Source: a virus (Duplodnaviria > Caudoviricetes). Taken from it: a stretch of DNA of 64,000 nucleotides. This document shows positions 27,057 to 31,237 of the stretch, in pieces. The first letter of the stretch is position 1. Each line of letters starts with the position of its first letter. Location: the IMG/VR virus record IMGVR_UViG_3300020576_005251, positions 96,001 through 160,000 of that record; one strand, given 5' to 3'. Both the position numbers and the translations under genes were made by a program. The notes under the pieces are model-generated. The model saw only the letters and a list, made by a program, of their open reading frames with translations, made no database searches and had not been told where the DNA came from.

Positions 27057-27646
27057 TAGTTCCTCAATCCTGCCAAGAAGTTCTTGGCGTGCTTCTCGTC
27101 ATCAAACAGCGCCCAGTCGGTGGCGCGCAGCTCACTGCCTCGATCGCTGTTCTCGTCCCGTACCACCCACCAGCCGACCTCGCGGGAAGAGAACTTGTCG
27201 CCCGCCAGCTTGTACTTGGGGCCGGAGGTGTTCTTCGACGTACCCGTCATCTGTGTCTTGACCGTGCGCTTGCTCGGATCGAGACAGTACTCCAGATACG
27301 CCCTGGCGTAGCCCCAGGACTTCTCGACTCCCACGTACCAGAACATGCGCCCATCGGGGAGGGGCATCTGCATGATCTTGATGTCACCGAGCTCGGCGCG
27401 CATCCTTTGCAGGGTCTGGGGGAGCGCGCCGAACTCGTACTCGGCGGCTCCCATGTAGTGCATCGTGAAGTAGTGGTCGATCCCCTTTCTTGGGTTGTCG
27501 GTGTCTGGCCTTTCCTCCAGGATCTGCACCAGACATGGGCAGCGCAGCTCCTTGATCAGCCACGGGGCCAGGAGCTGCGCTTCGCGTTCGGGGGTCATCT
27601 TCGAGTCGTTCTTCGCGGCTTGTCGTGCTTCGTTCTTCTTTCCCAT
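27056..27646 (-). CDS. hypothetical protein
   Basis: YMGAAEYEFGALP motif; GAGGAG RBS. Confidence 0.6.
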   Translation of the reverse strand: MGKKNEARQAAKNDSKMTPEREAQLLAPWLIKELRCPCLVQILEERPDTDNPRKGIDHYFTMHYMGAAEYEFGALPQTLQRMRAELGDIKIMQMPLPDGRMFWYVGVEKSWGYARAYLEYCLDPSKRTVKTQMTGTSKNTSGPKYKLAGDKFSSREVGWWVVRDENSDRGSELRATDWALFDDEKHAKNFLAGLRN

Positions 27647-27647
27647 T

Positions 27648-28172
27648 CTACTCCTCAGTCGGTGGCGTTGACTCACAGAACACACAGCGGCGATAGGCCG
27701 CAGGTCCTCCCGGATAGCCGTGGCAGTTCGGATACGGGCAGTCGTCAGACTCACAGAGGACGGCATCGACCGGCGTGAGCTTCTCGAAAGGCAGATCCGA
27801 ATACTGGGGCTTCTTGAGGAGAAACCTGCGGTAGGTCTCGCGTGCGAGTTCGTCGGTGAGGGCGATCAGGGTAGCGAGCTTGAGTTGGTAGACCTCCTCG
27901 GACATGCCCGGCGTCGCTTGCGATGCGTGAGGGTCGAGGTGCCGTCGCCCGAGCTCGGTGATCTCGAAGCGGATCGTCCGAGCGCCCCTCCCTCCGTTGG
28001 GCACACGATCCAGCTCGCGGATATACCCCTGGACGCGGAGGCGTTGCGTGACGCCAGTCACATTGAGGTACTTGCCACCTAGCGCCGCGTTCAGTCTGGC
28101 GTGGGTCAGCGGACCCTTCCGAAAAGCCTTCAGCGCCTTCTCCAACACGTCAGGGTCACGTTCCGCAGTCAC
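27648..28172 (-). CDS. winged-helix DNA-binding protein with C-terminal Cys cluster
   Basis: GPLT...LRVQGYIRE...FEITELGR wHTH pattern. Confidence 0.6.
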   Translation of the reverse strand: MTAERDPDVLEKALKAFRKGPLTHARLNAALGGKYLNVTGVTQRLRVQGYIRELDRVPNGGRGARTIRFEITELGRRHLDPHASQATPGMSEEVYQLKLATLIALTDELARETYRRFLLKKPQYSDLPFEKLTPVDAVLCESDDCPYPNCHGYPGGPAAYRRCVFCESTPPTEE

Positions 28173-28372
28173 CTCCGCCCCGCCATCGCCTTGAGCTCCA
28201 CCTCCAGGCTCAGGAGTACGGCGTATCGAGCCACCTCCACCTGCTTCACCCCTTTCAGCCCCCTCCGGGTCTGCTGCACACGCCGTGCCACGTCCTCGGG
28301 AGTGGTGCCGTCGCGGTGCGCCTCGGGTGCCCACCGCCTGATCTTCGCCCAGAGCGCTTGCCTGTTCTCCAT
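28169..28372 (-). CDS. small hypothetical protein
   Basis: First gene after promoter motif 28416-28430. Confidence 0.55.
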   Translation of the reverse strand: MENRQALWAKIRRWAPEAHRDGTTPEDVARRVQQTRRGLKGVKQVEVARYAVLLSLEVELKAMAGRR

Positions 28373-28479
28373 ACTTTGCCCTTCCTGACCGAGCGGTCAG
28401 AGTTCCCTACTTTCCCTTCTACCAGCAAAGACGGGAATCTACGCAGGCGGGGAACGAGCCGCAGAGGGGGTCGGCAAAG

Positions 28480-29170
28480 ATAACGTACACGAGGATGATA
28501 CCCGTGTACGTTGTTTACGTTAGGTTTGAACGCCTCGTTTTCTAGGGGTTCAAACGTAACGTAGACAGGTTTCCTAGCCAGCTATCAGTGATATGCCACT
28601 AAAGGGGGGTTGAGGCGCATGCCTGGGCGCCCGCCCGCAGGGACATTAGCGCCTGCGAGCGCGCACACGCGTTGCAACCCCCGTGCCGGAGGCACTCCCC
28701 CCAGCTACTTCTGCCTCCCCCGAAGAAACAGAGCAGACACCAAACCCTCTGAAAACAAAGGCAAAAGAAGCTGGCCCAAACCTTGCAGAACCCCAAAGAA
28801 CCAACCAATACATAAAAGCAACTCAATCCTTTGACGCGTTTATTTTTTTGACTTTCCAGACTTTTGGTCTGGTCTGGTGTTTGCTTGGTGTCTCTTGGCA
28901 TGGGGGTTGCTTTTCTTTCCTTGGCTTGGCTCTTGCTAAGGCCGAAGGCGGGTCGGCCTCCGGCCTGCCCCTTGCAACGCGCGCCGCGACCGCGCACGCG
29001 GTGATGTCCCCGCCCCCGCGCGCCCCGGCATGCGCCTCAACCCCCCTTTAGTGGCACATAGCTGATAGCTGGCTAGGAAACCCCACCCCACCCCCTCGAA
29101 GCCCCCAGAAACAAGCCACTCTAACGTAAAGTAAACAACGCCCCTTGCCCTCACTCTCGGTTACGTTATT
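28480..29170. repeat. ~700-bp degenerate inverted repeat, non-coding (origin, terminus or genome-end candidate)
   Basis: 28568-28623 vs 29027-29082 are reverse complements at 53/56; further in-register matches about axis ~28825. Confidence 0.85.
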
Positions 29171-29190
29171 ATTGCCCCTGGAGGTTCCCC

Positions 29191-29670
29191 ATGGCCCGTC
29201 CCCGCACCCAAGACCCCGTCGTCTCCACCACCATCTGTCTCCCCACGAGCGTCCTGCAACGCCTTCAAACCCTCTCCGACAGCCGCGTCGCCCGGGGTTT
29301 CCCTGCCAAGTCCGTGTCCAAGCTCCTCCACGAGATGACCCTCGCCGCCCTCCCCGCCTACGAAGCCTCCGAAGGCTATCTCTGGAATCCTCTAGCAAAC
29401 CGCAGCGCCGTCCCGGCCCCCCTCGGCCGTCCCCTCCCCTCCGAGCACTGTCTCCCCCTCCCTGGCGTCGCCCAGGCGCCCTCCACCTTCCCCCTCCCCC
29501 CTCCCCCTCCCCAGGCCCCGACCTACGCCCCCACCGACGCTCCCCCTCTCCGCGACCTCCTCGCCGCCGCCCAGGAGCAGCGCCTGGGCACGCACCAGGA
29601 CCTCTCCCTGGACACCTTCTTCGCCGAGCTCGGTCCCCAGGACACCCCGCCCCCCGGCCGCGCCCCCTGA
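29191..29670 (+). CDS. ribbon-helix-helix DNA-binding protein with Pro-rich tail
   Basis: GGAGG RBS; VSTTICLPTSVLQRLQTLS...SVSKLLHEM fits RHH. Confidence 0.6.
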   Translation: MARPRTQDPVVSTTICLPTSVLQRLQTLSDSRVARGFPAKSVSKLLHEMTLAALPAYEASEGYLWNPLANRSAVPAPLGRPLPSEHCLPLPGVAQAPSTFPLPPPPPQAPTYAPTDAPPLRDLLAAAQEQRLGTHQDLSLDTFFAELGPQDTPPPGRAP

Positions 29671-29807
29671 ATCCCCCAGCGATCCCCTCCCGACTCTCCC
29701 GTCTTCCCGCCTCAGCCCTCCCGACTTTCCCGCCTCCAAACTGACTTTCCAGACTTCACGCACCCTGACCACTCGGTCAACTTTCCAGCCACTCCAGACT
29801 TCCGACC

Positions 29808-29879
29808 CAAAAGAAACCGAGCCGCCGCCCCTCGACGGGCGGCGGCTCATCGAGGGGGCGGCGTTCGTACGGCGTACGG
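29808..29879 (-). terminator. terminator with adjacent TACGSCGTA
   Basis: CGCCGCCCC...GGGGCGGCG stem, TTTCTTTT tail on minus strand. Confidence 0.55.
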
Positions 29880-30161
29880 TCAGGGTGAGGGCTTGATCCC
29901 TATCTCCTCCAACCTCTCCTCCAGCTTCCACTCCGGCCACGCCCGAAGCCCGCCGCTGTCCGAGTGGTTGACCAGGAAGTACCGCTTGCGAGGGTTGAGT
30001 GTGGGCTTGTGGTCGAGCTCCGTCACCCAGAACCCTCGCGCCTTGTAGTCCGACGCGAGGGCACCCGTCTCCGTGAGGATGAGGACGGTCCGCCCCAGCT
30101 TGACCAGCAGGAAGCGAGGGGCGGAGGGTAGTTCGGAGGCGTCCCGAACGCGGTGTGTCAC
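29880..30161 (-). CDS. hypothetical protein
   Basis: GTGA-coupled. Confidence 0.5.
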   Translation of the reverse strand: MTHRVRDASELPSAPRFLLVKLGRTVLILTETGALASDYKARGFWVTELDHKPTLNPRKRYFLVNHSDSGGLRAWPEWKLEERLEEIGIKPSP

Positions 30162-31237
30162 TTCACACTCGCCCAGATCGCCTCGTACTCGGGGTGGTTG
30201 GGTCGAGGCTCGCCAGCGGGGCGGACGTGGGCAGCTCGCGTGACGTACTGTCGGTACTCGAACAGAGCCTTCTTGTGTTCGGCGGCAGAGAAGCCACTCT
30301 GGTACCCCATCCGCACGCGGTCCTGCTCCTGCTTCCGAAGGGAGCACTCCGCGTACTCCACCGCCGCCTTCCGATACTTCTCGAAGTCCACCTCCACCTT
30401 CCCCACCTGACGAATCAGGGCGGGCTTCTTGACGACGCGGCACGCCCAGGGTTCGGCGGTCGTAGGGTCTTGCTGCTCGGCCCACTCTTTGGCCCAGAGC
30501 TCGATCGTCTCTCGATCGGACTCCTTCGCCACGTACATGCTCAGGTCCACCCAGACATTGACCCCCCGTTCGAGCTTTACGGCGTATTCCGCAGGCCGCA
30601 TCGGGTAGCCGTACACCGCCTTCTTCGTCTCGACGATGTCATCCACGTCGCACTTGCCCAGGTAGACCATCGCATCGAGCTTCCGGGTGAGGTACACCCC
30701 ACCCAGCTCGTAGTCCGCCTGCGTCAGGTCCTTGGTCGCCTTGCGCTCAGCGGCCTCCAGCATCGCCTTGTGGAGCGTTGACCCCACCCGCACGAGCCGG
30801 AGCTGTGTCTCGTAGCGCCCCCACACGAACGGCCCCGCGAGGATGCCGCCCTTCTTCGCCCCGCTCGCGAGGAGCGCATCGAGCACCACATCCTCACGCA
30901 TGTCGACGTAGAGCGTCCCATCCAGCACGCCACCCAACCGCACCTTGTAGGCACGCCCTCCTTCCTGCCGCACCTCCAGGCTCAGGATCTCGACGGACTT
31001 GATGGGGTCGTTGTCGAGCGTGGTGGAGGTGCACTTGCCATCCCCACCCCACCCCGCCGCCCATCTCCGCGCCGTCTCCTTCCCGTCCTTGGACTGTTCG
31101 TCCACCGCGAACGCAGGCGTCGCGGTGACAGGCGGGGCGATGTCGAGGTCGCTGAAGCCCGTCCAGCCGCGCCGCACCTCGACCTCCTCGCGCTGGAAGT
31201 ACACGAGGCGCTTGGGAATCTCACCGTAGATGATCAC
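30158..31237 (-). CDS. hypothetical protein
   Basis: ~360 aa; GGRAYKV..YVDMREDVVLD motif. Confidence 0.65.
   Translation of the reverse strand: MIIYGEIPKRLVYFQREEVEVRRGWTGFSDLDIAPPVTATPAFAVDEQSKDGKETARRWAAGWGGDGKCTSTTLDNDPIKSVEILSLEVRQEGGRAYKVRLGGVLDGTLYVDMREDVVLDALLASGAKKGGILAGPFVWGRYETQLRLVRVGSTLHKAMLEAAERKATKDLTQADYELGGVYLTRKLDAMVYLGKCDVDDIVETKKAVYGYPMRPAEYAVKLERGVNVWVDLSMYVAKESDRETIELWAKEWAEQQDPTTAEPWACRVVKKPALIRQVGKVEVDFEKYRKAAVEYAECSLRKQEQDRVRMGYQSGFSAAEHKKALFEYRQYVTRAAHVRPAGEPRPNHPEYEAIWASVK

Follow-up and report, generated by a model that had tools for sequence, protein, structure and literature searches.

The divergent switches of temperate phages, for instance immI of P22 (with mnt and arc, both of which encode ribbon-helix-helix proteins) and PR/PRM-OR of lambda, occupy regions of about 80–200 bp. 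Palindromic replication origins are also known, such as oriL and oriS of herpes simplex virus, which lie between divergent genes, and the archaeal oriC, which contains inverted ORB elements. In addition, quasipalindromes are corrected by template switching, which is a mutational mechanism and not a function. In the conjugation switch of pLS20, a regulator binds two separated arrays, loops the DNA and controls divergent promoters (PMC4207663).

The ~700-bp degenerate palindrome analyzed here shares several features with P22 immI and lambda PR/PRM-OR: small genes for putative DNA-binding proteins are transcribed outwards from a shared non-coding region, the repeats overlap a promoter, and the putative operator sequences differ between related phages. 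Unlike those two regions, which have neither a long palindrome nor a conserved AT-rich core, the putative outward promoters are here ~640 bp apart, a distance far beyond the needs of operators. Neither an integrase nor any other sign of lysogeny was found in this phage. With the origins of herpes simplex virus and archaea the locus has in common the mirror symmetry round the easiest-to-melt DNA, the inverted arrays of sites and the divergent genes; the adjoining gene of a winged-helix protein, here a lead, is a further likeness to them. It differs from these origins in that it is far longer (~700 bp), in that no UL9- or Orc1/Cdc6-type ATPase initiator is present, and in that the module is not common to the wider phage family; a role as an origin is in this case putative.

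As in the pLS20 switch, two separated arrays of sites accompany divergent promoters, which are here putative, and looping of the DNA may occur here too. The proteins belong to a different family, and the operators of pLS20, a plasmid that is not known to have a long palindrome, are much closer to each other (reportedly ~75 bp apart). Finally, the correction of quasipalindromes explains parts of the arms that change together (conversion tracts) without any selection on pairing, although the arms are here 400 nt apart, further than in the classic cases.

The palindrome is the most conspicuous non-coding landmark of a clade in which almost none of the genes has a known function, and it is an obvious place to look for an origin or for the main switch from early to middle transcription. 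If either role is true, three adjacent small proteins gain a function. Its layered structure is also a clear natural example of a long inverted repeat that has been decaying and has been partly re-homogenised.

The palindrome and its flanking genes

The window, i.e., the whole stretch of 64,000 nucleotides that was analyzed, comprises bases 96001–160000 of a 172,885-bp virus record with 64% G+C and a CheckV rating of complete. The two ends of the record overlap by ~23 nt with one mismatch and, on account of this overlap, the assembly is probably circular or permuted. Near-identical sequence is present in wastewater, river and sludge runs of 10 studies. The palindrome is located at ~124.8 kb of the full record; all positions given below are those of the window unless the genome is named.

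The ~700-bp degenerate palindrome is real and conserved. The original prediction had listed a series of matches in register about an axis at ~28825, all of which are present. The arms 28568–28664 and 28986–29082 have 97 nt each and are 85% complementary (53/56 over 28568–28623); a second pair, 28668–28702 and 28947–28981, is found nearer to the axis, and the outer matches at 28480/29162 and 28509/29121–29140 were confirmed as well. The arms contain identical blocks of 21 and 29 nt, which flank a 244-bp segment between the divergent genes. By self-BLAST, this is the sole significant inverted repeat of the whole genome (225 nt, 73%, E 1.8e-26). Folded as single-stranded DNA, the region reaches −186.8 kcal/mol against −104.8 kcal/mol for shuffled sequences, a difference of 82 kcal/mol (z = −18). 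An artefact of assembly is ruled out by a DNA contig from an independent study that covers 27400–29475 unbroken. The short-read unitigs of other runs break only at identical arm blocks of 29–31 nt, as an inverted repeat predicts. The same structure is found in eleven further public assemblies.

The anticipated composition of the centre was also borne out. Its top strand is rich in A and C left of the axis and in T and G right of it (A−T of +18, +13 and +8, then −17 and −19, per 40 nt), and the centre lacks exact pairing, the mirrored halves being only 42–45% alike. The region had been described as the longest non-coding and most AT-rich part of the window, which is true even across the whole 173-kb genome. 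The stretch without a coding GC3 signature measures 770 nt (560 nt in the runner-up), and the centre holds the windows of lowest GC (0.39 over 100 bp and 0.435 over 200 bp; mean 0.64). The parts of the region are listed in Table 1.

Table 1. Coordinates of the palindrome, its parts and the neighbouring features in the window.
Feature	Position	Strand	Basis or remark
Gene of 177-aa winged-helix-like protein (left operon, gene 2)	27648–28181	−	GC3 frame plot
67-aa gene (left operon, gene 1)	28169–28372	−	GC3 phase
Left-operon leader, with palindrome TGACC-N4-GGTCA at 28386–28399	28373–28445	−	88–90% identity between lineages, above adjacent coding DNA
Left outermost arm	28474–28567		Five AACGTA hexamers as two local palindromes, 28482–28512 and 28512–28567
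Left mid-arm	28568–28604		Fast-evolving; homogenised with right mid-arm in some lineages
Left inner arm	28605–28702		GC-rich, conserved, local hairpin potential
Centre	28703–28946		Non-coding, lowest GC of the genome; blocks invariant between lineages
Right inner arm	28947–29045		GC-rich, conserved; 85% alike between lineages
Right mid-arm	29046–29082		Partner of 28568–28604
Right outermost arm	29083–29170		Two AACGTA hexamers mirroring 28482 and 28516
Predicted sigma70-like promoter of ribbon-helix-helix gene	29145–29172	+	TTGCCC, 16 nt, TATTAT
Gene of 159-aa ribbon-helix-helix-like protein	29191–29670	+	GC3 phase
Second TGACC-N4-GGTCA	29766–29779		Downstream of ribbon-helix-helix gene; kept in L009
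Intrinsic-terminator-like hairpin	29818–29849	−	13-pair stem, 11 G-C, then T-rich tail (minus strand)

According to frame plots, the palindrome occupies an 818-bp gap between divergent genes: a minus-strand 67-aa gene with an overlapping 177-aa gene on the left, and a plus-strand 159-aa gene on the right. The centre has no period-3 GC signal and shows 1-nt indels between lineages. Some public assemblies annotate open reading frames within the gap; they were rejected, since they lack a GC3 signal and are broken by such indels.

The predicted promoter of the 159-aa gene is the sole promoter-like site in 28000–30200, where 0.1 would be expected. This gene has a GGAGG ribosome-binding site at 29181–29185, with the promoter given as ~20 nt before. 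Both the promoter layout and the ribosome-binding site are kept in all lineages (defined below), with TTGACA as a perfect −35 element in lineages B and C. In the left arm, a −10-like element is present but a −35 element is missing, and a search of the leader for a genome-recurrent motif, as a phage-specific promoter, yielded nothing usable. The hexamer AACGTA is nearly restricted to the outer arms, which hold 7/9 of its copies in the window, with five in the left arm, two in the right arm and two mutually mirrored pairs among them. The copy at 29162–29167 abuts the −10 element (29167–29172), so that the repeat overlaps the promoter.

The flanking proteins have no match in Pfam, in the function-annotated PHROGs or in PDB sequences. 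The AF2 models of both regulators are poor (pLDDT of 41 and 52), and the fold assignments derive from low-confidence models and sub-threshold leads. The named matches of the 177-aa protein in a protein atlas are all winged-helix regulators, every one with a score below 0.9, and its designation as a winged-helix regulator is a lead only. In an alignment with its homologs (P0001–P0003; 177/172 aa), a C-terminal Cys/His motif of the zinc type is conserved, and the putative recognition helix varies by lineage. The C-terminal cluster, of about four cysteines and one histidine, corresponds to no Pfam family and is probably a zinc site. The 67-aa gene is 75–90% conserved in P0007–P0010, and the winged-helix gene always follows it; its product is possibly a small helix-turn-helix protein.

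The 159-aa protein begins with a ribbon-helix-helix-like domain, which a proline-rich linker joins to a conserved acidic/hydrophobic peptide at the C-terminus. For this domain, the AF2 secondary structure consists of a strand (14–18) and two helices (19–34 and 42–59) at low pLDDT, a low-confidence model that suggests a ribbon-helix-helix fold. The linker has ~50 residues, and the C-terminal peptide, which ends in two phenylalanines, looks like a partner-recruiting tail. In the homolog P0005, which is 59% identical over the full alignment, this peptide is conserved.

With regard to its wider setting, the palindrome is sited between two co-directional minus-strand units, since a strong hairpin with a T-rich tail ends a minus-strand gene run to the right of the 159-aa gene. 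This terminator-like hairpin (29818–29849) closes a long minus-strand unit whose genes lie to the right. The abrupt GC-skew step at the palindrome stems from this right-hand unit (genome 124–152 kb), in which the coding strand has more G than C at all three codon positions across a ~28-kb transcription unit; for this reason, the step was rejected as a replication signal. In window coordinates, the 28-kb block of small minus-strand genes spans 28000–56000 and has a position-3 skew of +0.06 to +0.35, compared with about −0.1 elsewhere. The block with the G-rich coding strand begins sharply at the terminator. One idea is that the G-rich coding strand keeps a long early transcript free of C-rich sites at which Rho could load.

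Relatives and layered evolution

Relatives were gathered from protein look-ups (L006, L009, L011, L057 and L059–L065), giving 12 assemblies with the window included. They are divided into lineage A (the window and L057), lineage B (three sub-lineages) and lineage C (L011). The gap measures 811–825 nt in 12/12 assemblies and its sequence is 67–76% alike between the three lineages. The orientation of the centre relative to the flanking genes is likewise identical in 12/12 assemblies, which come from at least 8 samples. One member of sub-lineage B3, L061 (GCA_054403235.1, 172,397 bp), is near full length and nearly equal in size to this phage; it carries a Macro-domain gene ~400 nt beyond the ribbon-helix-helix gene.

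The identity between lineages is layered: 88–90% in the leader, 73–88% in the inner arms and centre (77–88% in one of the comparisons), and 38–59% in the outer arms. The left outermost arm is 45–55% alike between the three major lineages, while the left inner arm is 76–88% alike between lineages and 72–78% alike to the right arm. At the left side of the right inner arm, a 34-nt block (28932–28965) that has no mirror copy is invariant in a four-assembly alignment. In the inner arms and centre, sequence from one side resembles that side in other phages (0.73–0.99) more than it does the opposite side of its own phage (0.42–0.78), which indicates that the duplication predates the lineages and that each half has been kept in its own form.

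The left–right identity of the mid-arms within a phage is 0.92 in the window, 0.95 in L011, 0.89 in L009 and 0.64 in L006; between lineages, mid-arm identity is 0.38–0.49. These spacers are homogenised, with visible conversion tracts, in the window, in L011 and in sub-lineage B2. The 53/56 match of the arms is, as read from these alignments, a case of sporadic gene conversion within a fast-evolving spacer. Selection for arm identity as a requirement was rejected on the basis of sub-lineages B1 and B3, in which the left and right mid-arms are only ~65% alike. At the homologous places of the outer arms, the other lineages carry different repeats, and B3 is mixed, with a site of A type on the left and one of B type on the right.

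Four more distant family members, found via an SNF2 helicase, contain neither the two regulator genes nor a comparable inverted repeat, and they share almost none of the surrounding genes; one of them is 90% complete. Hence, the palindrome is no constant feature of the family and travels with a small cassette within an accessory region that is hypervariable. It is found only together with its cassette genes, and it is absent from L004, which has one neighbouring gene in common. Similarity searches found no look-alike sequence in the phage and plasmid collections searched, where BLASTN of the region gave no match. The exact arm and centre motifs are absent from IMG/VR, and pattern scans of that database with the 236-aa and ribbon-helix-helix proteins produced no match. 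In 185,579 representative genomes of prokaryote species, the arm motif had no match and the centre motif only chance 19-mers.

Possible functions of the palindrome

The reading that we favour, tentatively and at slightly less than even chances, is that the palindrome is an old inverted duplication that acts as a mirror-duplicated promoter/operator hub, that is, as a control region shared by the genes of a clade-specific cassette that encodes small DNA-binding proteins. From the axis outwards, each half would consist of an AT-rich half-centre, a GC-rich inner arm, a fast-evolving spacer, operator-like repeats and a gene. Direct support from the sequences is available for the conserved layout, for the promoter, repeat and ribosome-binding site on the right-hand side, for the near confinement of lineage-specific repeats to the outer arms, and for the co-occurrence with the genes.

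In the proposed mechanism, the cassette's own proteins would occupy the two mirrored arrays of sites. Given the differences between lineages in its putative recognition helix, the winged-helix protein would be the best candidate binder of the lineage-specific sites. Once bound, the proteins would repress or activate two outward promoters, of which the left one is putative, perhaps by bridging the arms ~600 bp apart. It is important to note that one protein bridging identical sites is not required, since the left and right outer sites of B3 differ in type. The complex could also mark a boundary, with a possible insulating role, between the 29-kb upstream minus-strand operon that ends at 29818–29849 and the minus-strand operon that follows from 28372 onwards. 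Such a hub leaves the conservation of the 440-bp core, its extreme AT-richness and its strand asymmetry unaccounted for. The core may carry a second function, either in the unwinding of origin DNA or as a transcribed RNA, and owing to this unexplained conservation a replication origin stays the main rival. The two readings are compatible, and the hub could possibly be an origin as well.

A bidirectional origin, which had been among the proposals of the original prediction, appears unlikely on present evidence but deserves serious weight. The AT-rich asymmetric centre would be unwound, the mirrored arms would load an initiator or adaptor encoded next door, and flanking transcription may activate the process. 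The palindrome is the only large inverted repeat of the genome, its centre is the lowest-GC and easiest-to-melt DNA, and no other non-coding stretch of the 173 kb is as long as this region; however, the module belongs to a hypervariable accessory region and is missing from the four distant family members, including the one that is 90% complete. The composition of the top strand changes at the axis from A/C-rich to G/T-rich, a polarity that an origin would be expected to show, but the GC-skew step follows the transcription unit and is not the V-shaped skew of replication. In addition, the length of the gap is conserved, and the core is kept while the flanking arrays are lineage-specific, in the manner of iterons with their initiators. 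Nonetheless, no initiator, helicase, primase or loader is recognisable among the neighbouring genes in Pfam and PHROGs, searches that remote homologs may escape, and no DnaA box is present in the core when up to 2 mismatches are allowed. The clustered AACGTA hexamers (five left, two right) may form an array of initiator sites, although they could equally be operators.

The linker and the conserved C-terminal peptide of the ribbon-helix-helix protein could recruit a partner. In a more specific version of the origin, which we consider quite improbable, the core would be a new type of bidirectional phage origin that moves as an accessory-region cassette and uses this protein as its adaptor. The ribbon-helix-helix domain would dock on the mirrored arms, and the linker and C-terminal peptide would recruit the host or phage replication machinery to the easiest-to-melt DNA.

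Transcription of the core into a functional RNA has a poor chance of being the explanation. The core would give rise to one or two non-coding RNAs, or to long leaders, such as mirror-duplicated antitermination or processing elements, for which nutL/nutR and putL/putR are the duplicated elements cited as a parallel. In one metatranscriptome run, the unitig 28594–29026 has a depth of 87 and that of the ribbon-helix-helix gene 79, compared with 18–33 in the flanks (2.4–4.8 times), but unitig depth mixes strains and possibly includes DNA carry-over, which makes it a weak measure and a hint only. Inner arms of the left and right types have one hairpin in common, in which three pairs are compensated, yet GC-rich arms form hairpins from composition alone. 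A small hairpin with a U-rich tail is conserved on the minus strand (28761–28746), and the core as a whole is conserved without a coding signal; nevertheless, in consensus folds of the centre the covariation terms are positive (unfavourable) and only 2 pairs are compensated, and the promoter search inside the core was negative. Rfam gave no match at the gathering score, and a relaxed scan (best E-value of 0.15) gave nothing in the core above noise. Long-range RNA pairing between the arms was rejected, since the arm-to-arm mismatches are mostly transversions with no G–U bias on either strand and therefore bear no sign of selection for it.

Very improbable is a packaging site or physical genome end, whether of the pac/cos type or a junction of terminal repeats. 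The site is unique and non-coding, and its hexamer arrays recall the layout of P1 pac, in which such arrays stand on either side of a central region; this likeness is one of analogy. Contigs of several runs cross the site without loose ends, the adjacent genes that were scanned include no identified terminase, and related phages of the same family are without the module. Joined genome ends or a terminus, as originally suggested, obtained no support either: a protelomerase is absent, the centre is not palindromic and the contigs run through, these being assembled contigs and not read ends.

The likelihood of an invertible promoter switch, in which the centre would flip between the arms, is smaller still, even though long inverted repeats with identical blocks flank a segment between divergent genes as such a switch would need. 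As regards phage-encoded enzymes, the genome has no match to a serine (PF00239) or tyrosine (PF00589) recombinase, although a host enzyme could conceivably act. All 12 assemblies have a single orientation of the centre, and no inversion joint was seen, with the limit that unitigs break at the identical blocks and rare flips could be missed. The matching segments are only ~65% alike in two sub-lineages, and each arm keeps its own conserved differences, so the invertible segment of the original prediction is disfavoured. A hairpin-telomere resolution site of the telRL type can be practically dismissed despite the large palindrome at a unique site: the earlier judgement that this is not a classical telRL site was correct, as the centre is non-palindromic in its weakly similar halves, the 172,885-bp record has no match to a protelomerase (PF16684) of the kind found in N15, PY54 and phiKO2, and the size is far beyond that of known sites.

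Other repeats in the genome and in a distant relative

The arm motifs are confined to a single locus within the phage genome. A miniature inverted-repeat or foldback mobile element was rejected, given that multiple copies occur neither in the phage nor in the 185,579 species genomes. The 14-bp palindrome TGACC-N4-GGTCA has only two copies in 173 kb, which bracket the module (28386–28399 and 29766–29779). The palindrome is kept in relatives. Both copies have a GGAAAGT motif just upstream on the minus strand, and the copy at 29766 resembles a degenerate copy of the start region of the 67-aa gene. The module is also flanked by copies of the palindrome TACG(S)CGTA, one at 28217 (inside the 67-aa gene) and one at 29868 (just right of the terminator), neither of them inside the long palindrome.

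An exact 15-nt direct repeat links the centre (28849–28863) with a place downstream of the ribbon-helix-helix gene (29742–29756). It is specific to the lineage of the window; L009 (lineage B) lacks the second copy, so a recent local duplication is its probable source. Outside the window, near the end of the record (genome 169,934–171,844), three direct copies of a 64–113-nt repeat are 91–98% alike. In a distant relative with a genome of 188 kb (G004), the most AT-rich spot (L024:8960–9040) is not homologous to the palindrome studied here; it contains a perfect inverted repeat of 16 nt between AG/CT runs, and a gene for an SbcD-like nuclease lies downstream.
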